A stretch of DNA of 64,000 nucleotides from Thermoanaerobaculia bacterium (GCA_036380735.1 DASVEE010000045.1:77424-141423), one strand, 5' to 3'. Positions 10,866 through 64,000 are shown, counted from the first letter of the stretch. The notes: generated by a model from the sequence alone, not told the origin. Numbers and translations are program-made.

Positions 10866-10946
10866 CGTTGTCCGTTGACCGTTTTCCGTTGTCCGTCTCT
10901 GCACGGGCGGCCGGAACGGAAAACGGACAACGGAAAACGGACAACG
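10866..10946. repeat. Family-A heptamer palindromic repeat
   Basis: cgttgtccgttgaccgttttccgttgtccgt / loop / acggaaaacggacaacggaaaacggacaacg, between the cupredoxin gene and ctaD. Confidence 0.85.
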
Positions 10947-13532: not shown

Positions 13533-13620
13533 GCGTTGGCCGTTTTCCGTTTCCGTTGTCCGTGCCGCGCTGGTGCACGAGCGGCAGCACGGACAACGGA
13601 AAACGGACAACGGAAAACGC
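13533..13620. repeat. Family-A heptamer palindromic repeat
   Basis: gcgttggccgttttccgtttccgttgtccgtgccgc / loop / gcggcagcacggacaacggaaaacggacaacggaaaacgc, between ctaE and the subunit IV gene. Confidence 0.85.
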
Positions 13621-14287: not shown

Positions 14288-14320
14288 GCGTTGTCCATTG
14301 TCCGTTTTCCGTTGTCCGTC
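14288..14320. repeat. Family-A repeat, solo left arm
   Basis: gcgttgtccattgtccgttttccgttgtccgtc with no adjacent right arm. Lies between ATG 14279 and GTG 14321 of the next small ORF. Confidence 0.75.
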
Positions 14321-14560
14321 GTGAGACCCGTCGCTCTCGCGGTGATCGCTGTGCTGCTGATGCCGGTGGTCGCCTGGGCCTGCCCCGTCTGCTATGGTTC
14401 GCCCGACGATCCGCTCGTCAAGGCGACGAATAACGGCATCTGGGTGCTCCTCGGCTTCATCGCCTTCGTGCAGATCGGTTTCGTCGCCCTTTTCATCACC
14501 TTCTGGCGCCGCGCCAAGGCCCAGCAGCGCTTCAAGGAGCAGTTCCACGTCGTCAAATAG
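14321..14560 (+). CDS. Small exported/membrane CxxC protein in the oxidase cluster
   Basis: From GTG 14321 it reads (M)RPVALAVIAVLLMPVVAWA-CPVCYGS, then one TM helix. The alternative ATG 14279 would add a repeat-encoded N-terminus. Confidence 0.4.
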   Translation: MRPVALAVIAVLLMPVVAWACPVCYGSPDDPLVKATNNGIWVLLGFIAFVQIGFVALFITFWRRAKAQQRFKEQFHVVK

Positions 14561-14565
14561 ATAGA

Positions 14566-14627
14566 GTTGTACGGTTCTGTCGTCCGCCGAGCGCAGCACG
14601 GAAAACGGACAACGGAAAACGGACAAC
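14566..14627. repeat. Family-A heptamer palindromic repeat (degenerate left arm)
   Basis: gttgtacggttctgtcgtccg..gcgcagcacggaaaacggacaacggaaaacggacaac, upstream of ctaC. Confidence 0.75.
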
Positions 14628-14645
14628 AGGCAGGGGGGTAGGACA

Positions 14646-22856: not shown

Positions 22857-22948
22857 GGCGTTGTCCGTTGACCGTTGTCCGTGGTCCGTGCTGCGCGGTG
22901 CGCCGGGCGCAGCACGGAAAACGGACAACGGAAAACGGACAACGGACC
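22857..22948. repeat. Family-A heptamer palindromic repeat
   Basis: ggcgttgtccgttgaccgttgtccgtggtccgtgctgcgc / loop / gcgcagcacggaaaacggacaacggaaaacggacaacggacc. Confidence 0.85.
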
Positions 22949-41886: not shown

Positions 41887-41929
41887 GAAAGACGCGCGCC
41901 GTCGCAGCCGGCGCGCGTCTTTCGTTTTT
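41887..41929. terminator. Bidirectional rho-independent terminator between ftsY and 41928..42347
   Basis: GAAAGACGCGCGCCG-tcgcagc-CGGCGCGCGTCTTTC, flanked by an A-run upstream and GTTTTT downstream. Confidence 0.7.
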
Positions 41930-42347
41930 ACTTCACCACCAGCGTCTTGGTTCCAGTCGCATCGGCTGTATCTGAGACGTACGCGATCGCTCCGGCGTTA
42001 GCTTTGACGAACGCGATGGCCTGGGCGTCGGACGCTTTCTCCACCGGCGGGACGTCGCGGCCGGAGAAGATCTGCTGCTGCCAGTAGCTCTTCACTGCTG
42101 ACACGCTCTTGCCGTGCACGTCCGTCGTGAAGCCGGCGCGTGCCGCGGATTTGTCGTTCTGGTCGACCGGCACGACGGGCGTGCCGTGCTCCCACTTCGC
42201 GGTCTTCTTCATGAAGATCGAAGCGAGCTCTTTTTTCGTTAGTGAATCGGTCGGATTCGCCGTGTTGACGATGACCTTCCAGCCGGCCGCGTAGGCCACG
42301 CTGTGGGTCATCGTCACGAGGGCGAGTGCGACGAGAAACTTCTTCAT
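41928..42347 (-). CDS. Small periplasmic PstS-like substrate-binding domain protein
   Basis: Signal peptide MKKFLVALALVTMTHSVAYA. The PBP-like motif SYWQQQIFSG is common next to TonB receptors. Confidence 0.55.
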   Translation of the reverse strand: MKKFLVALALVTMTHSVAYAAGWKVIVNTANPTDSLTKKELASIFMKKTAKWEHGTPVVPVDQNDKSAARAGFTTDVHGKSVSAVKSYWQQQIFSGRDVPPVEKASDAQAIAFVKANAGAIAYVSDTADATGTKTLVVK

Positions 42348-42359
42348 CGGTACCTCCAG

Positions 42360-44420
42360 TTAGAACCGGAACTCGGTGGTGAGCACGAAACGGCGGCCGG
42401 GGTGCGCCGTGTTGGTGAAGCGGGGGATGTAGCGCTCGTTCGTGAGGTTCTCGCCGCTGACGGCGATGCGCAGCCAGTCGGTGGGATTGAAGCCGGCACG
42501 CAGCTTCACCTCGTCGGAGGCGGGCGTCAGTTCCACGCCATTCGACTCGTACGGCTGGTTGAACGAGTAGATCGCCTCGGCCCACGGCGAGAAGCGGCCG
42601 CGGAACGACGTCTTCACGCCGAGCGCGCCGTACGGCGGCGGGACGCGCTGGACGAACGCGACCTGGTCGGTGTCGTCGGTCTCGCCCGAGGTCGAGGTGT
42701 AGTTGGCGAAGAGCGACAGCCAGGTGGCCGGGCGCACCGCGAGCTCGAGTTCGTAGCCGTCGATCGTTGCGTCGCCGAGGTTGCGGTTCTGGCGCACGGT
42801 GGGCTCGCCGGCGTCGCGCGTCCCGTTGCCGTTGAAGTCGATGAACGAAAGACCGTTCCAGGTGGACGCCGTCACGACCAGCAGGTTCGAGAGGCTGTTG
42901 TGGAAGTAGAACGCGGAAGCCGACAGCAGCTCGTTCTCGAACTTGACGCCGCCCTCGTAGCTGATCATCTCTTCCGCGTCCGCGTTCGGATTCGGGATGG
43001 TGGCCGTGGTGGCGCTGAAGCTCGCGGCGGAAACGTCGCGGAGGTTCGGCGCGCGGAAGCCGCGCATGACGTTGCCGATGATGTTGAAGTTGGACGTGGC
43101 GTGGAAGATGAGGTTGACCGCGCCGGTGAGATCGCTCTTGGTGGAGTCGAGATCGACCGGACCGCTGGGCAGCGTCTCGCTGCCGCTGGTGCGGAAGAAG
43201 CCGTAGCGCAGGCCGGCCGACGCCGTGAGGCGGTTCGTCAGCTTCACGTGATCCTGCACGTACACGCCGACGGTGTCGTACGTGGTGCCGTCGGTATAGC
43301 GGCCGCGGACGTTGCGGATCGCGCCGGTGCTCAGCGTGAGGTCCTCACGCGAAGAATCGACGGCGTCGCGCGTGGCGTCGGCGCCGTAGACGAGATGGTG
43401 CTTGCCGAAGAACGACCCGAGCTCGACGTTCAGGCCGAGGAGCGTGTCGCGCTCGTTGAACGTCGTCTGCAGATCGGGCGTCGTCCGCGAGATGCCGATC
43501 GAGCCGGTGCTCTGGCGGTTCCAGTAGCCGGTCGCGCGGATGGACTGCGCCCAGCCGCGATCGGTGAGGTCCTGGTAGGCGAGAGTGGCGAGCTGCAGAT
43601 CGATCGGCGTGGTGTCCGCGCGCAGCGCCGAGCCGCTGACCAGCGTGGAGTTGGTGCGTACGTCATCCTGCTCCGAGCCGCGATAGGAGAACGTCAGCGT
43701 CTTCTCGGTGGAGACGAAGTAGTCGAACCCGAGGTGTGCGGAGCGCTGCGAGTAGTCGGTGAAGCGCTGCGTGCCGACGCCTTCGCCGCCGCGCATCTCG
43801 CCGAAGCTCTGGTAGTTCGCGCCGACGATCCAGCGCATCTTCTCGCTCTGGCCGTACACCTGGAAAGGCGTGGAGAACGCTTCGGCGGCGCTCGAGTACT
43901 GCATGCCGAGGCTCGCGCCGAAGTTGCCGCTGGTCGAGGAGCCTTTGCGCGTGATGATGTTGATCACGCCGCCGAGCGATTCCGTTCCGAAGACGGAGAC
44001 GGCGCCGCGGACGATCTCGATGCGCTCGATCTGGCTGATGTCGATGAGGTCGAGGTTCGGCGTGTCGCCATAGAGGGCGTTGTTGACCTTCACGCCGTCG
44101 ATGAGCACCAGTACCTGCCGGCCGAGGAGGCCGCGCACCACGGGCGCCGCGTTGCTCGACGAGGTGCGGTACTTCACGAACCCCGTTTCATCGCTGAGGA
44201 TGTCGCTGAGCGAGGTGGCGTTCTTGCGCCAGATCTCCTCACGAGTGATGACTTCGACGGCGCGTGCCGTATCAAAGGTGCGTTCCGGGACGCGGTTCAC
44301 CGAGTAAATGAGGTGCTCACTGAGGGCGCGGGCATCTTCCTGCGTCGCTGGCTCGTCCGCGCGGGAAACGGGTGCCAGCGCGAGCAGCAGAACAGACGCC
44401 GCGAAAATCGCGTGTTTCAT
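42360..44420 (-). CDS. TonB-dependent outer-membrane receptor
   Basis: Signal peptide from ATG 44420, plug-domain motifs (IEIVRGAVSVFG), C-terminal ...TTEFRF. Confidence 0.9.
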   Translation of the reverse strand: MKHAIFAASVLLLALAPVSRADEPATQEDARALSEHLIYSVNRVPERTFDTARAVEVITREEIWRKNATSLSDILSDETGFVKYRTSSSNAAPVVRGLLGRQVLVLIDGVKVNNALYGDTPNLDLIDISQIERIEIVRGAVSVFGTESLGGVINIITRKGSSTSGNFGASLGMQYSSAAEAFSTPFQVYGQSEKMRWIVGANYQSFGEMRGGEGVGTQRFTDYSQRSAHLGFDYFVSTEKTLTFSYRGSEQDDVRTNSTLVSGSALRADTTPIDLQLATLAYQDLTDRGWAQSIRATGYWNRQSTGSIGISRTTPDLQTTFNERDTLLGLNVELGSFFGKHHLVYGADATRDAVDSSREDLTLSTGAIRNVRGRYTDGTTYDTVGVYVQDHVKLTNRLTASAGLRYGFFRTSGSETLPSGPVDLDSTKSDLTGAVNLIFHATSNFNIIGNVMRGFRAPNLRDVSAASFSATTATIPNPNADAEEMISYEGGVKFENELLSASAFYFHNSLSNLLVVTASTWNGLSFIDFNGNGTRDAGEPTVRQNRNLGDATIDGYELELAVRPATWLSLFANYTSTSGETDDTDQVAFVQRVPPPYGALGVKTSFRGRFSPWAEAIYSFNQPYESNGVELTPASDEVKLRAGFNPTDWLRIAVSGENLTNERYIPRFTNTAHPGRRFVLTTEFRF

Positions 44421-44464
44421 ACGTGCTTCTCCTATCTGAACGACTTGGACAGAGCGGCCCTTGC

Positions 44465-44479
44465 GCAACGGATGTGCCA
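44465..44479 (-). promoter_or_regulatory. Sigma54 (-24/-12) promoter for the TonB receptor operon
   Basis: Minus strand TGGCAC-ATCCG-TTGC(G). ~33-nt leader containing an AGGAGAAG SD sequence before ATG 44420. Confidence 0.65.
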
Positions 44480-44548
44480 CGCGTCTGTAGAGAGGAAGCA
44501 CGTCTCTCCGTGTCTGGAGTCTGGATTTCAGTCTGAGATCTGGAGTGC

Positions 44549-44642
44549 GCGCGTTGTCCGTTTCCCGTTGTCCGTTGTCCGTGCTGCGCGCGGCGTACAG
44601 CACCAGCACGGACAACGGACAAGGGAAGACGGACAACGAACG
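44549..44642. repeat. Family-A heptamer palindromic repeat between two divergent sigma54 promoters
   Basis: gcgcgttgtccgtttcccgttgtccgttgtccgtgctg / loop / cagcacggacaacggacaagggaagacggacaacgaacg. Confidence 0.85.
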
Positions 44643-44658
44643 AAGCCACTCTCCGGGA

Positions 44659-44679
44659 TTCAGACAATCACTGTCTGAA
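44659..44679. promoter_or_regulatory. Perfect 8-bp dyad TTCAGACA-N5-TGTCTGAA, candidate enhancer/activator site
   Basis: Lies 81-101 bp upstream of the -24 element at 44760. Related GTCTGGA / TTTCAGTCTGA motifs mirror it at 44508-44545. Confidence 0.3.
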
Positions 44680-44759
44680 ATCGGGAATCCAGACTGCCGG
44701 CCAACGCGCTCAAATCGCGTAACTCCAGTGCCGCCAGTATTTAGCGCGCTGCCATCTCA

Positions 44760-44774
44760 TGGCACTTCCGTTGC
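44760..44774 (+). promoter_or_regulatory. Sigma54 (-24/-12) promoter for the EAL-che operon
   Basis: TGGCAC-TTCCG-TTGC(G), 20 nt upstream of ATG 44794 (very short leader). Confidence 0.6.
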
Positions 44775-44793
44775 GCTAGGGCCACTCATTCAA

Positions 44794-45552
44794 ATGATCC
44801 ACGACACTCTCGACCGCTGGTTCCATGACGACGCCGTCACGGTGCTTTTTCAACCGATCGTCCAAACCGATGCATCGCTGGCGCTGCATTCGGTCGAGGC
44901 GCTGACGCGTGGTCCGCGGGGAACGCAATTCGAGGACGCGGGCGTCTTCTTCGAATACCTGCGCCAGACCAAGCAGGAGATCCGCGCCGACCGCCGCTGC
45001 GTCGCCGCCGCCATCAAGGCGGTCGCGGAGCACGGCGGCGTCGAGCACGTGTCGATCAACATTCATCCGACCACACTGGAGCGCGACACGCAGTTCGCCG
45101 GCTTCCTGGAAAGCGTCCTGGCGCGTGAGTCGTTCGACGCGCACCGCATCACGCTCGAGATCATCGAAGAGTCGCGCTACTGGAGCTCGCAGGCTCTCGG
45201 CGCGGCCGTGCAGGACGTCCGCTCGCTCGGCGTCACGATCGCGCTCGACGACGTCGGCGTCGGCCGCTGCAACTACCGGACGATCCTCGACGTCGCTCCC
45301 GACGTCCTGAAGATCGACCGCTGCTTCATCGACGGCTGCGCCGGCGACGTACGCCGCCGCGCCATCGTCGATTCCATCCGCCGCCTGGCGTCCGACATCG
45401 GCGCGGTCGTCGTCGCCGAAGGCGTCGAGCGCGAGGAGGACTTCGCCGTCGTCCGGGAGCTCCGCATCCCGTACGCCCAGGGCTATCTCTTCAGCCGTCC
45501 ACGCCCGCTCGCCGAAGTCATTCCACCCTACAAACAGCTCATCACCGCATGA
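44794..45552 (+). CDS. Stand-alone EAL-domain c-di-GMP phosphodiesterase
   Basis: LFQPIV, VEALTRG, IALDDVGVG, VVAEGVE, QGYLFSRP. Confidence 0.85.
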   Translation: MIHDTLDRWFHDDAVTVLFQPIVQTDASLALHSVEALTRGPRGTQFEDAGVFFEYLRQTKQEIRADRRCVAAAIKAVAEHGGVEHVSINIHPTTLERDTQFAGFLESVLARESFDAHRITLEIIEESRYWSSQALGAAVQDVRSLGVTIALDDVGVGRCNYRTILDVAPDVLKIDRCFIDGCAGDVRRRAIVDSIRRLASDIGAVVVAEGVEREEDFAVVRELRIPYAQGYLFSRPRPLAEVIPPYKQLITA

Positions 45553-45566
45553 AGGAGAGAAGTGCA

Positions 45567-45938
45567 ATGTCCCGAAAGAAGATCCTCCTCGTCGACGACT
45601 CCAACACCATCCTGATGATGGAACGGATGATCCTCACGAAAGGACCCTACGACCTTCTGACCGCCAGCAACGGCGAAGAGGCCGTCGCCAAAGCCCTCAC
45701 CGAACGCCCCGACCTCATCCTGATGGACGTCGTCATGCCGAAGATGAACGGCTTCGACGCGTGCCGGAAGATCCGCAGCGAAGCCACCATCAAAGACACG
45801 CCCGTGATCATGGTCACGACGCGCGGCGAGGTGCAGAACGTCGAGACGGGCTTCGAGTCCGGCTGCAACGACTACGTCACCAAGCCGATCAACGGCGCCG
45901 AGCTGATGGCGAAGCTGAAGACGTTCCTGGGGGATTGA
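45567..45938 (+). CDS. CheY-like response regulator
   Basis: ILLVDDS, LILMDVVMPKMNG, VTTRG, DYVTKP. GAAGGAGAG SD sequence upstream. Confidence 0.85.
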   Translation: MSRKKILLVDDSNTILMMERMILTKGPYDLLTASNGEEAVAKALTERPDLILMDVVMPKMNGFDACRKIRSEATIKDTPVIMVTTRGEVQNVETGFESGCNDYVTKPINGAELMAKLKTFLGD

Positions 45939-45943
45939 CGCCG

Positions 45944-46648
45944 ATGAGCAACGAGACGAACCACACCTCGTACGTCGACCGCGTCCGCGAGGACACGCAG
46001 AAATACGTTCGCCGTCTCCTCGGCGAGAACGAACAGCTTCGCGTCACCATCGCGCAGCTCGAGTCCGAGATCGGCCGCGTCAAGCAGGAGCTGACGCAGC
46101 GCCAGGTCGTCGAGCACGAGCTGCAGCTCGCGGTCGAGCGCATCCGCGCCGAGAGCGAGCAGTACATGGCGCAGTTCGCCGAAGTCGAGATGCACAACGC
46201 CAATCTGGCGAACCTCTACGTCGCCAGCTACCAGCTCCACGGCACGCTCGAGCGTGACACGGTGCTCAACTCCATGCAGGAGATCATCGTCAACCTCGTC
46301 GGCTCGGAAGAGTTCGCGATCTGCGAGATCGAGGACGAGGCGCTGACGCTGCTCGCCTCGGTCGGTCTCGAGGACCGTAGCGTGACGATGGCCACGCCGT
46401 GCGTGCGCGATGCCGTGACCAGCGGCGTGCCGCACATCACCAGCCCGATCGACCGCAATCCCACCGAGCCGCTCGTCTGCCTGCCGCTCAAGCTCGACGG
46501 CCGCGTCATCGGCGTCATCGTCATCATCAGCCTCCTGTCGCACAAAATGCAGCTCGAGCCGCTCGACCACGAGCTGTTCGACCTCCTCGCCACGCACGCC
46601 GCCACCGCCCTCTACTGCACCTCGCTCCACGAACGGGTCGCCGGATGA
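45944..46648 (+). CDS. Coiled-coil + GAF-domain protein
   Basis: N-terminal heptad-rich region (LRVTIAQLESEIGRVKQEL) followed by a GAF-like domain. Paralog of 1..528. Confidence 0.7.
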   Translation: MSNETNHTSYVDRVREDTQKYVRRLLGENEQLRVTIAQLESEIGRVKQELTQRQVVEHELQLAVERIRAESEQYMAQFAEVEMHNANLANLYVASYQLHGTLERDTVLNSMQEIIVNLVGSEEFAICEIEDEALTLLASVGLEDRSVTMATPCVRDAVTSGVPHITSPIDRNPTEPLVCLPLKLDGRVIGVIVIISLLSHKMQLEPLDHELFDLLATHAATALYCTSLHERVAG

Positions 46649-47148
46649 CGAGCATCGAGGAACTGCTGAAGACGTCGGGGCTCCCCCGCGGCGAAGAGGC
46701 GAACGCGCGCAAGGTCTACCTGCACGCCGGCCAGCTCTACGCCTCGGCCGAGCCTACGGAGATCGTCACGATCCTCGGGTCGTGCGTCGCCGTCTGCATG
46801 TTCGACCGCGCACGCGGCGTCGGCGGCCTGAACCACTTCATGCTCCCGACCGAGAGCGCCACGCCGAGCCCTCGCTACGCCCGTCACGCCAATGAAATGC
46901 TCATCAAGCAGCTCGTCGCCCTCGGCGCGAGCAGGTCGCGCCTCGAAGCCAAGATCTTCGGCGGCGCTTCCGTCCTGAAGATGGGCGGCGACACCGGCAG
47001 CGACCTCGGCATGCGCAACATCGAAGCGGCGCGGCTCCACCTCGCCAACGAAAAGATTCCCATCCTCGGCGAAGACGTCGGCGGTCTGCGCGGGCGCAAG
47101 CTCGTGTTCCTCACCGGCGACGGCACCGCCCTGATCAAGCAGGTGTAA
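46645..47148 (+). CDS. cheD: Chemoreceptor glutamine deamidase CheD
   Basis: ILGSCVAVCMFD, GGLNHFMLP, KIFGGAS. ATGA overlap upstream. Confidence 0.85.
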   Translation: MTSIEELLKTSGLPRGEEANARKVYLHAGQLYASAEPTEIVTILGSCVAVCMFDRARGVGGLNHFMLPTESATPSPRYARHANEMLIKQLVALGASRSRLEAKIFGGASVLKMGGDTGSDLGMRNIEAARLHLANEKIPILGEDVGGLRGRKLVFLTGDGTALIKQV

Positions 47149-47150
47149 CC

Positions 47151-48782
47151 ATGAGCGAGTTCGAGATCGACAGAGACGACATCGTCCGCGTGTTCCTCGC
47201 GGAAGCCGAGGAGAGCCTCACGCTCCTCGACGAGATGCTCGTCATCCTCGAGACGCGTCCGAATGACGATGAAGTCATCAACGCGATCTTTCGCGCGGCG
47301 CACACGCTCAAAGGCAACGCGGCAACCCTCGGCTTCGACGCGCTGACGAGCCTCGCTCACGCGATGGAGGACGTCCTCGACGAGACGCGCGCCAAACGCT
47401 TCAGCGTCACCAGCGGCCTCATTACGCTGCTCCTCCGTTCCGGCGACGCGTTCCGCCAGATGATCCCGGCCGCGGTCGCGGGCTCGAACGAGCTCACCGC
47501 CACGGCCACGCAGATCATCGAAGCACTCGAAGCCGCCCGGAAAGTCGGCTTCGTCACGGAGACGGCGTCCTACGTGGTCGAGCAGGAGACGACCGACACG
47601 GCGAATGTGAACGCGCGGCGCAAACTGCGCGTCGACCTCGACCGCCTGGACGTCATCCTCAATCTCACGAGCGAGCTCTCCATCGCCTCCGGCCGTCTGT
47701 CCGACGGACTGGCGTCGCTGCCGGAGCGCGAGCGCGAGCGCATCGATTCCGCGTTCGTCGACGTGGAGCGCATCCTCGGCGAGCTGCAGGAGCAGGTCAC
47801 CCGCGTGCGCATGGTGCCGATCGGCCCGCGCTTCGAACAGCAGCGCCGCACGATCCGCGACCTCGCGCAGTCGGCCGGCAAGCCGATCCGGCTCGTCATC
47901 GAAGGGCGCGACGTCGAAGTCGACGCCTCGCTCGTCGATCAGCTCAAGGATCCGCTCACGCACATCCTCCGCAACGCCGTCGATCACGGCATCGAGAAGC
48001 CGGAAGTGCGCCGGGAGCGCGGCAAGGATCCGATTGCCACGATCACGCTGCGTGCGCGCCACGACGGCGGCAGCGTCGTCGTCGACGTCATCGACGACGG
48101 CGGCGGCTTCGATCGCGAGCGCATCCTCGCCCGTGCCCGCGAGCGCGGCATGATCGCCCCGAACGCCACGCCTGCGGACGACGAGATCTTCGGCTGCGTC
48201 TTCGCGCCGGGGTTCTCGACGGCAGATGTCGTCACCGAGATCTCCGGACGCGGTGTGGGCATGGACGTCGTGAGCCGCGGCATCGCGGCGATGCGCGGTA
48301 CCGTCCAGGTGTCGAGCGTGGCCGGCTACGGCGCGACGATCACCATGCGCCTGCCGCTCACGCTGGCGATGCTGAGCGGCCTCGTGGTTGCGGCGGCAGG
48401 GGAGCGCTTCGTCGTTCCGATCGGCGCGATCCGGCAGTGCCTGGTCGTTCCGAAGAGTGAAGCGCGCGAGGCCGCGTACGGACTGCTCGACGTGAACGAC
48501 AGCGTCGTCCCGTACATCCGGCTGGCGCCGTTCTTCGCACTTGACGCCGCGGCCGTCACGCGCGTCGAGCAGATGGTGCTGGTCGAGGCCGAGGGGATGA
48601 CTGTGGGCCTCGTGGCCGACGATCTCGTCGGCGAAATGCAGGCGGTCATCAAACCGCTCGGCAAAGTCTTCCGCCAGTTGTCGGGCGTTACTGCATCAAC
48701 GATTTTTCCGGATGGACGGGTGGGGCTGATTCTCGACGTCGCGGCTCTGGTGCGCAGTGCGACGAGAGGAGCCGCGGCGTGA
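47151..48782 (+). CDS. cheA: Chemotaxis histidine kinase CheA
   Basis: HPt domain [14 protein letters not shown]. Kinase boxes DHGIE, DDGGGF, GRGVGMD. C-terminal CheW-like domain. Confidence 0.9.
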
Positions 48783-50485
48783 AACCGAATTCGAAAGAGA
48801 GACAAACCATGGTCGAGTCGCGAGGAGCGAACTTCGGAGCGAAGTTCCTCAACAACCTGAAATTCCGTCACAAGCTGCTGCTGCTGCCGCTCCTGGCCGC
48901 CGTCGGCTTCGTCGTCGTGCTCTGCGTGAGCATCTTCTTCAGCATGAAGAACAGCAACCTGCTGACGCTCGTGCAGACCGGCTATTACCCCGCCCTCAAA
49001 GGCTCCGAAGTGCTGACGCAGGACCTGGCCGCCATCCAGCGCGGACTGCAGGATGCCGTCGCCGCCGCGGACGTCGCGGCGGTCGAAGAGGTCGACAAGA
49101 TCCGCGATCAGTACAACGCGCAGATCGCCGAGTCGCTGAAGAACCCCGTAGTCGACGCGGAAGAGCACAACGCCCTGAAGAAGGCGCTGGACGACTATTA
49201 CGCCATTGCACGTCCGACCACGCTGCGCATGATCAACGGCGAATCGGGCGACGCCATGCTCGCCGCGATGCAGACGATGAAGGCGCGCTACAACAACGTC
49301 GAGCAACTGCTCGCGGCCGACCTGGCGGCCGACACCAAGGCCATCGACGCCGCGTTCGCGACGACGCGCCGCACCCAGAACATGACCACGATCATCATGT
49401 CGTCGGTCGTCCTCGTCTGCATCATCGGCCTCGTCTTCGTCTCGATGCACGTGGCGAAGCTCGTGACCCGCTCGCTCGACCGCGTCGTCACCGTCGCGCA
49501 GTCGGTCGCCGGAGGCGATCTCTCCAGCCGCATCGAGGTCGAATCGGCCGACGAGACCGGCCAGCTCATGAGCGCGATGCAGGAGATGTCGGACAAGCTG
49601 TCGATGATCATCGGCCAGGTCCGCGGCGGCGCCAACACGCTCGCCTCGGCCGCCGGCCAGCTCTTCTCCTCCGCCACGGAAGTGTCACAGGCCACGGGCC
49701 AGCAGGCGTCGAGCGTCGAAGAGACGACGGCCAGCCTCGAAGAGATGTCCGCCTCGATCGCCCAGAACGCCGAGAACAGCCGGATCATGGAGCAGATCGC
49801 CATCAAGGCCGCGCGCGACGCGGAGCAGAGCGGCAAGGCCGTCACCGAGACCGTCGTGGCGATGAAGTCGATCGCCGAGCGCATCTCCATCGTCGAGGAG
49901 ATCGCCTTCCAGACGAACCTCCTCGCGCTCAACGCCGCGATCGAAGCGGCGCGCGCCGGCGAGATGGGACGCGGCTTCGCCGTCGTCGCCTCGGAAGTCC
50001 GCAAGCTCGCCGAGCGCAGCCAGAGCGCCGCGAAAGAGATCCGCAACCTCGCCGGCTCCAGCGTCGAAGTGGCGGAGCGTTCCGGCACGCTGATGCAGGA
50101 GCTCGTCGGCACCACGAAGAAAACGTCCGATCTGTTGCAGGAAGTCGCCGCCGCTTCGAGCGAGCAGGCCTCCGGCGTCTCGCAGATCAACCGCGCGATG
50201 TCGCAGCTCGATCAGGTCACGCAGCGCAATGCTGCTGCGGCCGAGGAGCTGTCGAGCACCGCTGAAGAAATGAACTCCCAGGCGACCACATTGCAGGATG
50301 CGATCGCCTTCTTTACCGTCAATGGCGCGGGCGAAGAGCTGCCTTCTTCTACCTCCGTTCCCGCTGGTCCGCGCCTCACCACCACCCCCAGGGCAAAGAC
50401 GCCCGCTGCACGCCTGGCCGCGTCGGCGGGCGTCTTTCAGCCGCCCCATCCCACCGGTGACACGAGTGAGTACAAGAGGTTCTGA
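48779..50485 (+). CDS. Methyl-accepting chemotaxis protein (two TM helices, periplasmic helical sensor, HAMP)
   Basis: Signalling hairpin [41 protein letters not shown]. Confidence 0.9.
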
Positions 50486-50488
50486 CCG

Positions 50489-50821
50489 ATGACGGCCGAG
50501 ATGCTCATCGTCACGATCGGCGGCCTGCGATGCGCGGTGCCAATGGAGCGCGTGCTCGAAGTGCGCGTGCACCAGGGCTCCACGCGCATCCCGGGCTCGC
50601 CCGATTGGGTGTGCGGGGTGATCGAGCGTGAGGGCGTCGCGACGCAGGTCGTCGATGCCGCCCGCCGCCACGGCCGCCAGCTCACCTTCGACGAGCGCAA
50701 CTGCCTCGTGTTCGTCGAAGGACGCGGCGCGATGCTCGTCGACGGCGTCGAGGGCATTGCCGAGGTGTCGGACGACTCGGTCGTCATCGATCTCGACCAG
50801 ATGTTTGGAGGTGCGGCATGA
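50489..50821 (+). CDS. cheW: CheW-like coupling protein (short)
   Basis: CheW-like fold pattern (GGLRCAVPMERVLEV, GVIEREG). Sits in the che operon. Confidence 0.7.
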   Translation: MTAEMLIVTIGGLRCAVPMERVLEVRVHQGSTRIPGSPDWVCGVIEREGVATQVVDAARRHGRQLTFDERNCLVFVEGRGAMLVDGVEGIAEVSDDSVVIDLDQMFGGAA

Positions 50822-51285
50822 ACACCGCCTACGTGACGCTCCGCGTCGGAGCGGAGCTGTACGCTGTGCCGGCATCGACGGTCAGCGAGATCGTGTTGCT
50901 GCAGCCGCTGACGCGGGTGCCGACGATGCCGCCGTCGATCCGCGGCCTGATGAATCTCCGCGGCACCGTCATTCCCGTCGTCGATCTCGCCCGTCAGCTC
51001 GGCCTCGGCGAAACGCCCACGTCGATGCATACGTGCGCGGTCGTCGTCGACATCGACGCGGACGGCGTGCGCGCGCCGATGGGCATCATCACGGACGAGG
51101 TGCAGGACGTGCTGATGCTCTCGCCGAAGGACATCGAGCCGGCGCCGGCGTTCGGCGCCGCCGTCGAAGCGGCGTATCTCTCCGGCATGACGCGCATCGC
51201 CGGACGCTACACGCTCATTCTCGATCTCACGCGCATTCTCACGCCCGACGAGCTGCTCGCGGCGATCGAAGAGACCCATGACTAA
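50818..51285 (+). CDS. cheW: CheW coupling protein
   Basis: LYAVPASTVSEIV, IRGLMNLRGTVIPVVDL. Confidence 0.85.
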   Translation: MNTAYVTLRVGAELYAVPASTVSEIVLLQPLTRVPTMPPSIRGLMNLRGTVIPVVDLARQLGLGETPTSMHTCAVVVDIDADGVRAPMGIITDEVQDVLMLSPKDIEPAPAFGAAVEAAYLSGMTRIAGRYTLILDLTRILTPDELLAAIEETHD

Positions 51286-52108
51286 CAACCTGACCGAGGC
51301 GGAGTTCGTCCGCTTTCAACAGCTCATCGAGCAGGAGATCGGCATCCACCTGTCGGACGCCAAGAAACCGCTGCTCGTGGCACGCCTGTCGAAGCGGCTC
51401 CGCCACCTCGGTCTCGGCTCGTTCGGCGCTTACTACGACCACGTCGTGGCAGGCAACGATCCGGACGAGCGCATCCGCATGTTCGACGCGATCTCGACGA
51501 ACGAGACGCGCTTCTTCCGCGAGCCGAAGCACTTCGAGTTCCTCGACAGCGAAGTCTTCCCGAGGCTCAAGATGGAAGCGGCGAACGGAGAGCGTGCGAA
51601 GAAGCTGCGGATCTGGAGTGCCGGCTGCTCGTCGGGGGAGGAGCCGTATTCGCTGGCGATGCTGCTGCTCTACCACTTCGATCCGGGCGAGTGGGACATG
51701 CGCATCGACGCCACCGACATCTCCACGCGCGTGCTCGACACCGCGCGCCGTGGCACGTGGCCGATGCGCAAGACGGCGGAGATTCCGCGCGAATACCTCC
51801 GCCGCTACATGCTGCGTGGAACGCAGTCGCAGGAAGGCTACTTCAAGGCCAGCGACGAGCTGCGCCGCATCATCCGCTTCGGCCGTGTCAATCTCACGGA
51901 CGATGCGTATCCGGTCGACGGTCCGTACGACTTCGTCCTCTGCCGCAACGTGCTGATCTACTTCAACCATGCGCTCCGCGTGCGCGTGGTCAACAATCTG
52001 CTCGCGCAGGTCGCGCCCGGGGGCTACTTCTTCCTCGGGCACGCCGAAACGCTCAGCGGACTCGCGGACGGCCCACGCACCGTCATGCCCACCGTCTATG
52101 CCAAGTAA
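51278..52108 (+). CDS. cheR: Chemotaxis methyltransferase CheR
   Basis: NETRFFREPKHF, IWSAGCSSGEEPYSLAM, CRNVLIYF. Confidence 0.9.
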   Translation: MTNNLTEAEFVRFQQLIEQEIGIHLSDAKKPLLVARLSKRLRHLGLGSFGAYYDHVVAGNDPDERIRMFDAISTNETRFFREPKHFEFLDSEVFPRLKMEAANGERAKKLRIWSAGCSSGEEPYSLAMLLLYHFDPGEWDMRIDATDISTRVLDTARRGTWPMRKTAEIPREYLRRYMLRGTQSQEGYFKASDELRRIIRFGRVNLTDDAYPVDGPYDFVLCRNVLIYFNHALRVRVVNNLLAQVAPGGYFFLGHAETLSGLADGPRTVMPTVYAK

Positions 52109-53129
52109 CCTGCACGTCCTCGTGGTCGATGACTCCGCCGTAGTCCGGCAGACGATTCAGGCCATTCTCAAGACGCAGCCGGACATCACCACGTCCGCGG
52201 CGGCCGATCCGTTCATCGCGATGGACAAGATGAAGAAGGATCGTCCGGACGTGATCATCCTCGACCTCGAGATGCCGCGCATGGACGGACTCACGTTCCT
52301 GCGCAAGCTGATGAAAGAGGATCCGCTGCCGGTGATCGTCTGCTCCGGTCACGTCGGCGACGCGAGCCGCGAAGCGGTGCGTGCCCTCGAAGCGGGCGCG
52401 GTGGAGCTCATCGCCAAGCCGAACCTCGGCGTGCAGAGCTTCCTCACGGACTCCGCGGTGATCCTGGTGGACGCCGTGCGCGCGGCCTCGGAGTACCGCC
52501 TCCCGGTGCGCCGGAACGCCGGCATCGTGCCGACACGTCCTCCGGCGATCGGCCGTCGTGCGCCGCGCGTCATCGCGCTGGGTGCTTCCACCGGCGGCAC
52601 GGAAGCGATCCGCGAGATCCTCGAGCCGCTGCCGGTCTCGACGTGCGGCATCGTCATCGTCCAGCACATGCCGGCGCCGTTCACGCGATCGTTCGCGAAT
52701 CGCCTGAACGAGCTTTGCGCGATCGAAGTGAAGGAAGCCGAGGCGGGCGACGAGATCCACCCCGGCCGCGCCCTCGTGGCGCCCGGCAACCGCCACATGA
52801 CCGTGCACACGCACGGCCCGCGCATGTTCGTCGAGCTGCACGACGCCCCGCTGGTCTCCCGCCACCGCCCGAGCGTGGACGTGCTGTTCCGCTCCGTGGC
52901 GGAGAGCTTCGGCGCCGACGCCATCGGCGTCCTGCTGACTGGCATGGGCGCCGACGGCGCCGCCGGCCTGCTGGACATGCGCACCGCGCGAGCGACGACC
53001 ATCGCCCAGGACGAATCCACCAGCGCCGTCTTCGGCATGCCCCGCGAAGCCATTCGCAAAGGCGCCGTGGAGGCAGTGCTGCCGCTGCCCCAGATCGCTT
53101 CAGCGCTACTGAGGATGATGCAGGGGTAG
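52098..53129 (+). CDS. cheB: Chemotaxis methylesterase/response regulator CheB
   Basis: Receiver domain (VLVVDDS, DLEMPRMDG) plus esterase motifs (GASTGG, QHMP, GMGADG). Confidence 0.9.
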   Translation: MPSNLHVLVVDDSAVVRQTIQAILKTQPDITTSAAADPFIAMDKMKKDRPDVIILDLEMPRMDGLTFLRKLMKEDPLPVIVCSGHVGDASREAVRALEAGAVELIAKPNLGVQSFLTDSAVILVDAVRAASEYRLPVRRNAGIVPTRPPAIGRRAPRVIALGASTGGTEAIREILEPLPVSTCGIVIVQHMPAPFTRSFANRLNELCAIEVKEAEAGDEIHPGRALVAPGNRHMTVHTHGPRMFVELHDAPLVSRHRPSVDVLFRSVAESFGADAIGVLLTGMGADGAAGLLDMRTARATTIAQDESTSAVFGMPREAIRKGAVEAVLPLPQIASALLRMMQG

Positions 53130-53186: not shown

Positions 53187-53287
53187 GGTTGTTGTCGGTT
53201 TTCGGTTTTTGGTTTTCGGTGCTGCGCCCTGCGAGGATCTACGCGTAGCGCAGCACCGACAACCGACAACCGACAACCGAAAACAAC
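53187..53287. repeat. Family-A palindromic repeat (CCGAMAA variant) between convergent cheB and 53287..53652
   Basis: ggttgttgtcggttttcggtttttggttttcggtgctgcgc / loop / gcgcagcaccgacaaccgacaaccgacaaccgaaaacaac. Confidence 0.85.
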
Positions 53288-53652
53288 TACCGCCGCGCCC
53301 CCAACAGTTCATTCACCGTCGCGGCGATCTCCGGCAGCCTTTTCGGTTTCTGCAGCAGGACGTCCGCGCCGCGGGCGTCGGCCTGGACGGCGGATGCGCG
53401 GTAGGCGGTCAGCACGACGATCACCATCGTTTCGCTTTGGCCTCGCGCGAAGCGCACCACCTCCAGCCCTTCCGCTTCCTCGGAACCGGTGAGGCGCACG
53501 TCGGCGATCAGCACGTCGTACGTGCGCGTCGACAGCAGCTCGATCGCTTCGTCGCGGCGCGAGGCGGTGTCGACTTCGAAGCCCGTCAGCGTGAAGTAGC
53601 TGCGGCACGCGAAGGTGATGACATCTTCGTCGTCGACGACGAGCATACGCAT
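53287..53652 (-). CDS. Single-domain response regulator
   Basis: MLVVDDED, VLIADVRLTG, LTAY, LQKP. Confidence 0.8.
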   Translation of the reverse strand: MRMLVVDDEDVITFACRSYFTLTGFEVDTASRRDEAIELLSTRTYDVLIADVRLTGSEEAEGLEVVRFARGQSETMVIVVLTAYRASAVQADARGADVLLQKPKRLPEIAATVNELLGARR

Positions 53653-53659
53653 CGGTGGA

Positions 53660-55345
53660 TTATCCGCCGCGGGCCTGTGAAGACAAAGCCACGGGTGGTG
53701 CGACCGTCCGCAGCATCGGCGTGGACGCGCCGACCGCGCGGTTGCGGCCCCGCCGTTTTGCCTCGTAGAGTGCCCGATCGGCGCGGGCGATCCAGGCGTC
53801 GAGCGTGGACGCGTCGTCGACGCTCGCGACGCCGGCGCTGAATGTGACGCGCCGGCTCTCATCCAGGATCGCCCCATGCCCCAGCGCGGCGAACTCGGAG
53901 CGCAAGCGGTCCGCCAGACGAATGGCATCTGCCTCGGTCACGTCATGAATAAGCAGTGCGAGCTCCTCACCACCGAAGCGGCACACGGCGTCGGAGGGGC
54001 GCACGCGCTCGCGCAGCAGCGACGCGAGGCTGATCAGCACCGCGTCGCCCGCGGCGTGGCCGTAGCCGTCGTTCACGGCCTTGAAATGGTCGACGTCGAT
54101 CAGGACCAGCGCCGAGGCCGTGTCGCTTTTGCGGCGGGCGGCCGAGGCCGCGGAGAGGCGGCGGCTGAAGGCCGCGCGATTCAAGAGACCGGTGAGGCTG
54201 TCGCAGTCGAGCGACTGCCGCAGGAGCTTCGCGCGCGAAAGCCGCGCACGCACGACCGGAAGGAGCACGGCCGGATCGATCGGCTTCACGAGATGATCGT
54301 CGCCGCCGGCCAGCGTTGCATCGAGGCGCGCGTCGATGGCTCCTTCCGTCGTCAGAAAGATGATCGGCGTCGCGCGAAAGTCGTCCTGCTGCCTGGCGAA
54401 GCGCGCCAGCTCATAGCCGCTGACCCCCGGCAGGAGAATGTCCATCAGGACGAGATCGGGCGTGCACTCTTCGAGTGCAACCTGGAACTCTTCGCCGTTG
54501 CGGCAGCTCGTCACCTCGTAACCTTCGCCTTCGAGCAACGTGCGCAGGAAGAGCGTCTGGTGCACGTCGTCCTCCACACACAGGATGCGCGAGCCGGTGG
54601 CCCGCCGCGCTTTGATCGAGCTTCTGAGTCTCGCCGCGAGCGTGGCTGCGTCCACCGGCTTCTCGACATAGAAGTCAATGCCGGCGCGGATCGCGTCCAC
54701 CTTGTCGATGAAGTCGTCCAGGGCGCTCGCAGCGACAGCGACGACGCTGGCACCGTCCGGCGACTTGCGGATCGCGGCGATGAGCTCGAGGCCGGAGCCG
54801 TCCGGGAGGCAGATGTCGGCGACGATCGCTTCCGGCAGGCGGGCGAGCACTTCAGACCGTGCCTCCGCCAGGTTCGAGGCCGTGCGGACCGCGAACCCGT
54901 GCTGGCGCAGCTCCGTGGCGAGCCACGTCCGCTGCAGTGGATTGTCTTCGATGAGCAGCAGGTCGTGCTCTCTCGCCGACCGCGGTTCCGGTCGTGAAGG
55001 AACAACGACCGCACCGCGAGTGGCGATGCCGCCGACTTCATCGGTCACGACGTCGAGCAGGTTGCGTAGCCGGACCAGATCCGCGGCGGCCGGTGCGTCG
55101 CCCGAGGAGGCGAGGCGCCGGCATGCATGTTCACCGCGCGAGGCTACCATGACCAGGAGCTCGGCTCCCGGCACGCCGCTCACTCCGGCGAACGAGTGAA
55201 AGCCGCGCAGCAGGTTCTCGACCGCTTCGCGGGAGCCGGGGCTCGTCTCCAGCAGCAGCGTGTCCTCACGCATCGACGCGAGCCGCTGCGCTGCTTCTTC
55301 GAGGAACGTGGCCAGCAGGAGAGCCGTGTGTTCCGCGGTCATCAT
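53660..55345 (-). CDS. HPt-like / REC / REC / GGDEF diguanylate cyclase
   Basis: N-terminal helical domain with HSFAGVSG. Two receiver domains (IEDNPL..., VEDDVH...DILLPGVSG). Active site RFGGEELAL. Confidence 0.8.
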   Translation of the reverse strand: MMTAEHTALLLATFLEEAAQRLASMREDTLLLETSPGSREAVENLLRGFHSFAGVSGVPGAELLVMVASRGEHACRRLASSGDAPAAADLVRLRNLLDVVTDEVGGIATRGAVVVPSRPEPRSAREHDLLLIEDNPLQRTWLATELRQHGFAVRTASNLAEARSEVLARLPEAIVADICLPDGSGLELIAAIRKSPDGASVVAVAASALDDFIDKVDAIRAGIDFYVEKPVDAATLAARLRSSIKARRATGSRILCVEDDVHQTLFLRTLLEGEGYEVTSCRNGEEFQVALEECTPDLVLMDILLPGVSGYELARFARQQDDFRATPIIFLTTEGAIDARLDATLAGGDDHLVKPIDPAVLLPVVRARLSRAKLLRQSLDCDSLTGLLNRAAFSRRLSAASAARRKSDTASALVLIDVDHFKAVNDGYGHAAGDAVLISLASLLRERVRPSDAVCRFGGEELALLIHDVTEADAIRLADRLRSEFAALGHGAILDESRRVTFSAGVASVDDASTLDAWIARADRALYEAKRRGRNRAVGASTPMLRTVAPPVALSSQARGG

Positions 55346-56019
55346 GCTGTCGCCCTCACGTCCGCCGGTGCTGCTTCGATCAGGAACCGGACCACGGCCG
55401 CGCGCAGCTTCGCCACGTCGACCGGTTTGGCCAGGTACTCGTCCACACCGAAACTTTTCCGCGCTTCGGTGCTGTAGCGCGCGGCCGTGTAGAGACCGCT
55501 CATGATGATGACGCGTGTGGCGGAGAGCTCCGGGTCGCGCTTCATCGCTTCGCACATTTCGCGGCCGTCCATCTTCGGCATGAAGGCGTCGGAGATCACG
55601 ACGACCGGTTTGTGCACGCGCGCCAGCTCCAGGGCTTCCTGGCCGTTGCCGGCTTCGATGAAGCGGCAGTCGAAGTCCTTCAGCGACTGGCGGACGGCCA
55701 TGCGCACGGTGCGGGAATCGTCGACCAGCAGCAGCACCGGGCGTGCGTCGGCGGCGGCGGCTTCTTCAGCCGCGCCGCCCTTCTGCCGCTCGTCGCGGAG
55801 GCGGCGCAGCTTCTCCTCCCAAAGGACCTGTGGTGCGTTGGCCCAGAACTCCGAACGGCGGGCCGGCGTCACGCGGCAGAGGCAGTTGCAGCAGTGGGGA
55901 CAGACCACGGAGTGCTCGCGGCTGAGGCATTTGCACCACATCACGTCGGCGGCGGAGAAAGGGACGCGGCAGGTGACACAGGTGACGGGCGAAGCGGGAG
56001 CATTCATCGCTGGATTCAT
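55342..56019 (-). CDS. Response regulator with novel N-terminal Cys-rich (9 Cys) domain
   Basis: CVTC...CKC...CPHCCNCLC, then a receiver domain (LLVDDS...SDAFMPKMDG...LAKP). ATGA overlap with the kinase gene. Confidence 0.75.
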   Translation of the reverse strand: MNPAMNAPASPVTCVTCRVPFSAADVMWCKCLSREHSVVCPHCCNCLCRVTPARRSEFWANAPQVLWEEKLRRLRDERQKGGAAEEAAAADARPVLLLVDDSRTVRMAVRQSLKDFDCRFIEAGNGQEALELARVHKPVVVISDAFMPKMDGREMCEAMKRDPELSATRVIIMSGLYTAARYSTEARKSFGVDEYLAKPVDVAKLRAAVVRFLIEAAPADVRATA

Positions 56020-58817: not shown

Positions 58818-58854
58818 TCTGGGGCGGCTCCCTCTTGGACCGAGCCCTATTACC

Positions 58855-58869
58855 GCAACGCCGGTGCCA
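58855..58869 (-). promoter_or_regulatory. Sigma54 (-24/-12) promoter for the hybrid-HK/DGC operon
   Basis: Minus strand TGGCAC-CGGCG-TTGC(G). ~26-nt leader containing a GAGGGAG SD sequence before ATG 58817. Confidence 0.65.
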
Positions 58870-58966
58870 TAACAGGCCTAATGAAATCAATGGTTTACAA
58901 GGAGGCGGCAGCCGTCAGTCTGAAGCTGGGACGACACTGTTCGAATTCTGAACGGACGGCACGAAC

Positions 58967-59122: not shown

Positions 59123-60483
<1,361 letters not shown>

Positions 60484-60487
<4 letters not shown>

Positions 60488-63400: not shown

Positions 63401-64000
63401 CCGGTTGCGTCGACGATCCAGAGGAGGTCGGGGACGTTCTCCACGACGCTGCGGTATTTCCGCTCGCTGTCGCGCAGAGCGTCGAGCGTCGCGAGCTGCG
63501 CGGTCACGTCGCGGTTGACCGAGAGGATGGCGTCGCGGCCGAAGTAGTCGATGCGGGAGGCGCGGACCTGCAGGTGAAGGAGCGTGCCGTCGGCGCGGCG
63601 CTGCGTCGTGTCGAACTCCACGACGCCGCGCTCGAAGAGGCGGGCGACGACGGGGGCCAGCTCTTCGGGATTGGTGGAGAAATCGAGCATCGACGTGCCG
63701 AGAAGCTGGTCGAGCGTGACGCCGTAGAGCTCACAGGCACGGGCGTTGGCTTCCAGGACCCGCTCGGTGACCGGATCGAGGACGAGGATCGCGTCGTGGG
63801 AGTTGTCGAAGATGCTGCGGAAGTGCTGTTCCGACTCCCACAGTTGCTGTTCGCCGGTGACGTCGGCGCCGGTGACGACGATGCGGCCGGCGTCGTCGGT
63901 GGCGAAGAGCCAGTCGATGGTGCGGGTCTCACCGCCGGCGATGACGATGGAGCTCCGGAGGGCGCCGGCCGGCGCTTCGCCGCGCGCGACGGTCTCGCGG
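60484..64000 (-). CDS. Multi-PAS/GAF sensor histidine kinase, 5' end outside window
   Basis: H-box AHEVRNPLFGI and HATPase GTGLGL. My translation shows the frame upstream of the track ORF start (63690) stays open to base 64000 (PAS-like ...SEQHFRSIFDNSHDAILVLD...). Confidence 0.85.

Follow-up and report, generated by a model that had tools for sequence, protein, structure and literature searches.

How are two transcription units that face away from each other across a short spacer switched on, and do they depend on one common activator site? This question is raised by a 64,000-nt stretch of DNA from a Thermoanaerobaculia bacterium (GCA_036380735.1 DASVEE010000045.1:77424-141423), here called the window. 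A spacer of 373 bp separates the gene of a TonB-dependent receptor, which is followed by that of a small periplasmic binding protein (PBP), from an operon that begins with an EAL-domain gene and continues with chemosensory (che) genes. The preliminary description of this DNA had proposed a divergent pair of sigma-54 promoters with one shared activator site, controlling nutrient uptake and a chemosensory/cyclic di-GMP (c-di-GMP) operon together. Our analysis suggests, with a probability of about 0.78, that the spacer holds two complete and separate sigma-54 control modules placed back to back, each with its own activator site, so that the receptor/PBP unit and the EAL-che operon would be switched on together. 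Each module would combine a core promoter, TGGCAC-N5-TTGC, with an upstream activator site (UAS) composed of CAGAC/GTCTG half-sites and, shortly after the predicted start, an element of the GTCCAA type. Joint induction is expected because both modules carry the same kind of site; co-regulation of the two units is very probable, although by way of separate, similar sites and not a shared one.

The window contains three exact (10/10) matches to the core element TGGCAC-N5-TTGC:

44479..44465, minus strand: P1, sigma-54 -24/-12 element TGGCAC-ATCCG-TTGC (TGGCACATCCGTTGC), exact consensus match, predicted to serve the TonB-receptor/PBP unit.
44760..44774, plus strand: P2, sigma-54 -24/-12 element TGGCAC-TTCCG-TTGC (TGGCACTTCCGTTGC), exact match, predicted to serve the EAL-che operon.
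58869..58855, minus strand: P3, sigma-54 element TGGCAC-CGGCG-TTGC (TGGCACCGGCGTTGC), exact match.

Three matches are 27 times the chance expectation of 0.11, which was obtained from 100 dinucleotide-preserving shuffles; none of the 100 reached three. All three elements are intergenic and oriented towards a gene start, and the spacing between the GG at -24 and the GC at -12 is exactly ten bases in each. The positions of the divergent pair, the estimate of about 0.1 match per 64 kb, and the placement and orientation of all three matches therefore agree with the preliminary description. A relaxed scan (GG and GC fixed, at most one mismatch) adds a single site in the 64 kb, at 1458..1444, where CTGC is read. 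This one-mismatch site (TGGCACCGGCGCTGC, 1444-1458, minus strand) is neither preceded by CAGAC half-sites nor followed by GTCCAA, and the reading frames flanking it gave no Pfam match. Related, non-redundant sequence amounting to about 278 kb contains 20 sites with no more than one mismatch, and 17 of them stand at gene heads with CAGAC/GTCTG half-sites within 130 nt upstream; there are at least two half-sites at each, except for P3, which has one.

Transcription is predicted to start near 44453 (minus strand) from P1 and near 44786 (plus strand) from P2. A scan of 44300-44900 found no sigma-70-like promoter, and an Rfam scan of the whole window matched no family. A reading of the extracytoplasmic function (ECF) type, with GTTGC as -35 and TCCAAT as -10, was rejected: the spacer would be only 13-14 nt, the start would lie within the EAL coding sequence, and nothing would explain why TGGCA is invariant.

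Conservation of P2 was analyzed at the EAL-operon heads of nine other lineages (L005, L003, L020, L007, L009, L016, L013, L018, and L021), with EAL identities from 84% down to 48%. The best protein matches belong to metagenome-assembled genomes of Thermoanaerobaculia (Acidobacteriota); a profile search of metagenome contigs with the EAL alignment gave only one useful short locus, L013. TGGCA-N6-TTGC stands directly before the EAL start in all nine. Both TGGCA and TTGC are invariant columns in alignment A5, which holds nine sequences; L021 lies outside it, was compared separately, and carries both as well. Further upstream, a motif is conserved as TCCAGAC-N4-7-GTCTGRAWTC-N3-5-(GA)ATCCAGAC. Its central invariant GTCTG begins 87-89 nt upstream of TGGCA in 9/9 lineages measured (the window and eight others), while the intervening sequence has largely diverged; L021 has the same type of site, with its distance outside this count. 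A distance that stays fixed despite the drifting spacer is as expected of a functional enhancer-promoter pair. That P1 and P2 behave as real sigma-54 promoters is strongly supported: their elements are retained at orthologous positions, with an activator site at a fixed distance and a gene for a GAFTGA-bearing activator in the neighbourhood, and the spacer yielded no sigma-70-like promoter. The sigma-54 assignment first made from the window alone was thereby strengthened.

The predicted activator sites and associated elements are as follows:

44511..44545, minus strand: predicted UAS of P1, four CAGA(C/T) half-sites, core centre about 70 nt upstream of the predicted start.
44659..44696, plus strand: predicted UAS of P2, TTCAGAC-N7-GTCTGAAATC-N5-TCCAGACTG, with its second dyad centred about 103 nt before the predicted start.
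44720..44744, plus strand: spacer blocks TAAC ... CAG-N4-TTAG, partly conserved between the P2 UAS and the promoter, with invariant AA and A..TT columns in alignment A5.
58916..58952, minus strand: possible degenerate UAS of P3, TTCAGAA ... CTTCAGACTG, from alignment A3.

Two motif groups had been noticed between the promoters, a perfect dyad and mirrored GTCTGGA/TTTCAG motifs, and both are present. The dyad TTCAGACA-N5-TGTCTGAA at 44659-44679 forms the left part of the P2 site, and the GTCTGGA/TTTCAG motifs lie at 44511-44545. Both are conserved in relatives, and their assignment as activator-site material is supported. The half-sites are kept at a constrained distance while their flanks drift, as would be expected of a UAS. 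The P1 and P2 sites are inverted copies of each other, with 22/28 matching positions (44512-44539 versus 44667-44694; p 3e-8). The octamer [TC]CAGACTG occurs four times in the window; three of these copies are upstream of the three promoters, each on the strand of its promoter. At the place of the spacer blocks, L018 reads ATCAATGACTTG and L021 reads ATCAACTACTTC. In some lineages these blocks (e.g. ATCAATGACTTG in L018) have what we take to be a resemblance to the IHF core, which is weak in the window; the blocks are possibly a site for a bending protein of the IHF type.

Could a single site in the middle of the spacer serve both promoters? The candidate would be the dyad at 44659-44679, perhaps together with the palindrome of repeat family A that lies beside it. 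It is well established that enhancer-binding proteins act at a distance and in either orientation, and every half-site cluster of the window lies within about 250 bp of both P1 and P2. However, a single shared UAS would be one cluster needed by both promoters, and two clusters are present, inverted copies of each other, one per promoter. In each of the nine lineages measured, the dyad stands at a fixed distance from P2, and a divergent partner gene is missing from most of them. As for the palindrome, it belongs to a dispersed repeat family and has no copy at the counterpart in L005.

L005 is also the closest relative (EAL 84%, FtsY 92%), and its equivalent neighbourhood lies next to ftsY. The P1 and P2 modules stand 4.3 kb apart there, with two unrelated genes and other repeats between them, and each keeps its own cluster. 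Because of this separation with both clusters retained, P1 and P2 should not depend on one common site, and we consider the single shared site quite unlikely. The P1 module has been kept in L005 even though a deletion has removed the larger part of the receptor gene and the beginning of the PBP gene. Its UAS has 29 consecutive bases identical between the window and L005, and the core promoter is nearly identical, whereas the stretch between UAS and promoter cannot be aligned and contains an indel of 22 nt, equal to about two turns of the helix. It was also observed that L005:1072-1604 holds P1, its UAS, and a ribosome-binding site before a 53-codon N-terminal remnant of the receptor gene, which the deletion has fused to the last 104 codons of the PBP gene.

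The separate modules also resemble each other beyond the activator sites. P1 and P2, each with about 20 nt that follow, match at 29/35 positions (44445-44479 versus 44760-44794), and at 19/25 positions outside the ten consensus bases (binomial p 6e-7). A repeat finder describes the spacer as nested inverted repeats, I2, I4, and I1, around about 44600. It was asked whether such matches might be due to chance or to a mobile element, that is, a composite palindrome (44445-44794) with inverted terminal repeats and a repetitive extragenic palindromic (REP) core, with transcription starting from unrecognised promoters. The rough palindrome formed by the whole spacer would fit an element of this kind, as would the break of one assembly (L004) inside the central hairpin. 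The right arm, however, ends at the EAL start codon and is conserved there in nine lineages that lack the left arm, no further copy of the arms is found in the window, and the match count of 27 times expectation speaks against chance. This explanation is therefore regarded as very improbable. A miniature inverted-repeat transposable element (MITE) or composite palindrome was rejected on the ground that the right arm alone is conserved at the orthologous place.

The hairpin between the modules is of a different nature:

44552..44638, no strand: family-A hairpin, a REP-like insertion between the modules, with 35-nt arms that are 91% complementary.

Each arm contains four heptads of CGTTGTC/CGTTTTC, and the predicted RNA fold, at -70 kcal/mol, is a very stable hairpin. 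Other copies are found at 10866-10946, 13534-13619, 22859-22944, 33020-33050 (one arm only), and 14289..14628. The heptad-decamer gives 43 matches against 6.4 expected, in six clusters in the window. Family A is also present in L011/L012 and nowhere in L005. The hairpin is best described, from its distribution, as a dispersed REP-like passenger outside the control region, and the middle of the spacer appears to tolerate insertions. An earlier suggestion that the family-A palindrome takes part in control was not borne out: there are at least six copies in the window, and none at this place in L005. Roles as operator or terminator were rejected as without support, the hairpin lying between divergent promoters and being absent at the L005 counterpart.

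Several further observations concern the repeats. The copy at 14289-14319 / 14598-14628 has arms about 280 nt apart instead of about 20 nt, and a ribosome-binding site and start codon stand directly before its left arm, which means that part of the repeat may be translated. L004 is an independent short-read assembly with an identical receptor gene, and its position 1 corresponds to window 44581, in the middle of the family-A hairpin, a typical repeat break. A second repeat family, the direct repeat GTCCTATTTCCC(A/T)TTCCCCGCACACCCA(A)GGGCC, lies between the activator gene and P3 (58985-59100), with a related GGGACCCATAGGACCTATAGGAC near 1500 (1495-1540). L005 has its own repeats at the counterpart places (L005:1700-2100 and 940-1010), a palindromic GTGGGACAGACACTCTTGTCTGTCC... 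in two copies and a tandem GGTCA(C/T)CGATGACTGAATTTC array.

Which activator might bind the half-sites? The strongest candidate is encoded 14 kb from the divergent promoters, directly upstream of P3:

59123..60487, minus strand: NtrC-type sigma-54 activator with receiver, AAA+, and Fis-type helix-turn-helix domains (Pfam, including Sigma54_activat, E 6e-61, and HTH_8).
60484..64000, minus strand: PAS/GAF histidine kinase gene overlapping the activator gene (Pfam); the frame runs off the end of the window.

The GAFTGA motif of the activator is intact in the translation, and the kinase is paired with the activator in all relatives. Orthologues of the pair (activator identity 65-74%) adjoin the che operon in four other lineages. 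They are convergent with cheB in L010. The P0136 contig has the gene order kinase, activator, two regulators, EAL; in L018/L019 and L021 the kinase, the activator, and a regulator lie upstream of the EAL operon on the same strand. A sigma-54 promoter with CAGAC half-sites stands before a response-regulator gene in L013, L018, and L021; this gene directly follows the activator gene in L018 and L021, and probably also in L013, as judged from the P0136-type gene order. P3 occupies the same position in the window, next to the activator gene, and probably belongs to the same regulon as P1 and P2.

The promoters might instead be served by an activator encoded elsewhere, with the neighbouring kinase-activator pair acting as the output of the che system and not as its controller. 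There is a precedent in Myxococcus xanthus, where the Che3 system signals to the NtrC-like activator CrdA, and L010 and L002 have a second kinase-activator pair beside related genes. Against this, the promoters beside the second pair lack GTCCAA and are preceded by another type of site (CCCGAGATCTCGGG), the CAGAC-type sites co-occur with orthologues of the 59123..60487 activator in L010 (with L007), L018, and L021, and CAGAC half-sites precede the response-regulator promoters whose position P3 shares. An activator from elsewhere is thus considered unlikely. The 59123..60487 protein is the best candidate, because the CAGAC-type sites covary with its orthologues and the promoters of the other pair differ; it is most probably the cognate activator, driven by the adjoining PAS/GAF kinase. 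The second pair, which is unrelated (L010:4870-5006, L002:6500-6680; promoters at L010:4975 and L002:6624), lies beside a palindrome, CCCGAGATCTCGGG / GAAATCTCGGGAATCCCG. In L002, a palindrome of the CCCGAGATCTCGGG type, not of the CAGAC type, heads a che operon without an EAL gene.

In the proposed mechanism, sigma-54 RNA polymerase would sit at each core promoter as a closed complex. The phosphorylated NtrC-type activator would bind the half-site clusters at about -70 (P1) and about -103 (P2), loop to the polymerase, and spend ATP to open the promoter. P3 would drive a phosphorelay that ends in a diguanylate cyclase.

The sequence after each promoter was also compared. Leader lengths were estimated on the assumption that transcription starts 12 nt after the GC, which gives about 33 nt for P1, about 7-8 nt for P2, and about 26 nt for P3; the P2 leader is only just compatible with a sigma-54 start. 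The EAL ATG of the window lies 19 nt after TTGC and has no Shine-Dalgarno sequence. Seven lineages have 18-19 nt at this place, whereas L013 has 24 nt and L018 has 26 nt, and no Shine-Dalgarno sequence is present. Nearly all of 22 EAL orthologues share the N-terminus M[IV][HQ][DE], beginning at the first codon. The leader of about 8 nt, which had been raised as a caveat, is by these comparisons real and conserved. Response-regulator ATGs 16 nt after TTGC were observed in L018:9444-9477, where the annotated start confirms the position, and by prediction in L013:208-240; the leaders there would be about 5 nt long. In this lineage, sigma-54 transcripts with almost no leader may be common.

Beyond the starts, a short element recurs:

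44445..44450, minus strand: GTCCAA element after P1, 14 nt after TTGC, about +3 to +8.
44788..44793, plus strand: ATTCAA, the P2 variant of GTCCAA in the window, abutting the EAL ATG and aligning with GTCCAA/GTCCGA of the relatives.
58840..58834, minus strand: GTCCAAG after P3.

GTCC[AG][AG] lies 13-16 nt after TTGC at all CAGAC-type promoters examined, except at three response-regulator heads, where L021 has a TTCCAA variant at 9 nt and L013 and L018 have none. GTCCAA is shared by P1, P3, the EAL-head promoters of relatives, and the promoter of a porin-PBP unit in L021. One speculative extension is that this element, at about +2 to +9 and only at promoters with CAGAC sites, is a second control element outside canonical sigma-54 regulation. 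Several promoters of this kind also have a first cistron with almost no leader. Taken with the outer-membrane channel and the small PBP that accompany the che system throughout, the element could define an undescribed acidobacterial pathway. Such a pathway would run from a substrate imported through the outer membrane to a binding protein, to sensing by a methyl-accepting chemotaxis protein (MCP), and to c-di-GMP turnover, all gated by sigma-54. We regard this extension as doubtful.

Some observations weigh against two activator-dependent modules of this kind. It is unusual for an operon to begin with a gene whose leader has only about 8 nt and no Shine-Dalgarno sequence. The region upstream of P3 fits the site consensus only partly. 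Sites in the window are about 180-250 bp from the promoters of the opposite module, so that cross-activation, and with it some sharing, is possible. The proposed link between the activator and the sites comes from synteny, and the closest activator orthologue (81%, in L011/L012) is followed by 3.7 kb of remaining contig in which there is no che operon. A six-frame search of the window and loci L001-L012 did not find the RpoN-box motif.

The transcription units served by the three promoters have the following features:

42360..44420, minus strand: TonB-dependent receptor, 686 aa, with signal peptide (Pfam Plug and TonB_dep_Rec_b-barrel); ATG at 44420.
44427..44433, minus strand: Shine-Dalgarno sequence AGGAGAA of the receptor gene, read from the sequence.
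41928..42347, minus strand: small periplasmic PBP_like_2 protein, 139 aa (Pfam PBP_like_2, E 9e-9), predicted to be co-transcribed with the receptor.
44794..45552, plus strand: EAL-domain protein, 252 aa, first gene of its operon (Pfam EAL, E 1.5e-46); ATG at 44794.
45549..53129, plus strand: rest of the EAL operon, encoding a CheY-like response regulator, GAF protein, CheD, CheA, MCP, two CheW, CheR, and CheB (Pfam).
53287..58817, minus strand: P3 unit, encoding a hybrid PAS histidine kinase with receiver, a response regulator, an Hpt-receiver-receiver-GGDEF protein, and a response regulator (Pfam).

The nearest NCBIfam subfamily of the receptor is a heme/hemoglobin receptor, with a score below the cutoff of that family. 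The EAL protein has the catalytic-motif residues and is probably a c-di-GMP phosphodiesterase. The gene order of the EAL operon is the same in relatives, and two CheW genes are placed between the MCP gene and cheR according to that order. The P3 unit (53287-58817) encodes a phosphorelay ending in a GGDEF diguanylate cyclase, and the P2 operon begins with the EAL phosphodiesterase gene. It appears that sigma-54 controls the synthesis as well as the breakdown of c-di-GMP.

The PBP_like_2 gene is paired with the gene of an outer-membrane protein in all relatives examined, and the position of the pair varies. In L001-3, L007-10, L016, and L020, the che operon includes the genes of the receptor and the PBP, placed between cheA and the gene of the MCP. 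A receptor with a PBP_like_2 protein of about 140 aa is found in this arrangement at L007:6451-8935, L009:10029-12529, L016:5978-8472, and L010:16010-18494; the pair of the window spans 41928-44420. The pair is divergent from the EAL gene in the window and in the P0010 contig (58% EAL identity), and its remnant in L005 is placed likewise. In L021, the genes of a porin-like protein and a PBP are convergent after cheB, and this unit has its own sigma-54 promoter, CGGCAC-N5-TTGC, with CAGAC half-sites and GTCCAA. A search of genome contigs with the receptor found three loci only, at about 60% identity, all in-operon, with no intergenic counterpart. By these comparisons the pair of outer-membrane channel and PBP is a constant companion of the che system, and where it forms a separate unit it carries the same control module. 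The arrangement suggests that the receptor-PBP pair delivers or presents a ligand sensed by the che system. Since the receptor and PBP genes lie inside the che operon in most relatives, their co-regulation in the window would preserve an old functional unit.

These positions also bear on the origin of P1. The regulatory region of P2 may have been copied recently to give P1, at the time the receptor-PBP pair left the operon, in which case the likeness of the two would reflect ancestry and not only constraint. This concerns origin only and is compatible with two separate modules. The matches at non-consensus positions and between the activator sites noted above are consistent with a copy, as is the in-operon position of the pair in most relatives. 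TTGCGC[AT][AT]GGG is common to P1 and P2 of the window and of L005, while others read TTGCCCAT or TTGCCTT, and the P1 of L005 keeps the blocks GATTTCAC-TAACCAAC ... CACTTAC that are seen before P2 in other lineages. Reuse of promoters in prokaryotes is documented (PMC3575422). On the other hand, the divergent arrangement also occurs in the lineage of the P0010 contig, L021 has a separate unit with its own promoter, and the cheA-mcp junction of the window is like the insert-free junction of L018. The likeness of P1 and P2 could also be maintained by shared constraint or by gene conversion. A recent copy is a serious possibility at slightly less than even odds.

It was also observed that the 3' end of cheA (CCGTTCGCGAGAGCGGCGCATTCAAA) in relatives with the in-operon arrangement (L003:9925-9975 and equivalents) resembles window 44768-44793. 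The match between the cheA end and P2, from the -12 element to the ATG, is about 21/27 with one gap. It could be due to chance, or to microhomology used in a rearrangement.

How do the two modules compare with known systems? In sigma-54 promoters of the NtrC family such as glnAp2, a UAS lies at about -100, often with a site for a bending protein, and the core is GG-N10-GC. The window is similar in its TGGCAC-N5-TTGC elements, in the dyad half-site clusters about 70-105 nt upstream, and in an activator with receiver, AAA+ (GAFTGA), and Fis-type helix-turn-helix domains that is encoded beside a sensor kinase. It differs in its half-site, TCCAGAC/GTCTGGA, in its target genes, in the conserved GTCCAA after the start, and in the first-cistron leader of about 8 nt without a Shine-Dalgarno sequence. 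The Che3-CrdA system of Myxococcus xanthus likewise links a che-like cluster to a sigma-54 activator and a sensor kinase, whereas in the window the che operon itself has a sigma-54 promoter, and the unit includes an outer-membrane channel, a small binding protein, and an EAL protein.

In E. coli, ZraR binds between zraP and zraSR. Both of these divergent units are targets of the RpoN holoenzyme (PMC8743547). Two divergent units, one short spacer, and an NtrC-type activator are common to zraP-zraSR and the window. However, the promoters of the window each have their own copy of the site, the modules can be separated by 4.3 kb (L005), and the activator is encoded outside the two divergent units. 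Promoter reuse and putative mobile promoters in prokaryotes were described by Nijveen, Matus-Garcia and van Passel in 2012 (PMC3575422). P1, P2, and P3 are comparable in being similar beyond the consensus and preceding different genes of one genome, but the copies of the window serve genes that already belong to one functional unit. Family A resembles REP/REPIN repeats as a short, near-perfect, multi-copy palindrome located mostly in short intergenic gaps; it differs in arms made of four 7-nt tandem units and in the one copy (14289..14628) with widely separated arms. A literature search for sigma-54, a chemosensory operon, and a TonB receptor together found no paper.

The divergent sigma-54 pair is thus an ordinary kind of regulatory region that is unusually well supported by conservation in relatives. 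Thermoanaerobaculia is a class of Acidobacteriota represented here by metagenome assemblies only, and no mapped promoters were found for the class. For this class, the analysis provides a well-footprinted sigma-54 regulon, with a core promoter, the half-site TCCAGAC/GTCTGGA at a fixed position, and a candidate kinase-activator pair. It also indicates how co-regulation can be kept when genes leave an operon, in that the separated unit carries its own copy of the control module. The association of an outer-membrane uptake pair with a chemosensory/c-di-GMP system gives a testable lead on the signal that is sensed.

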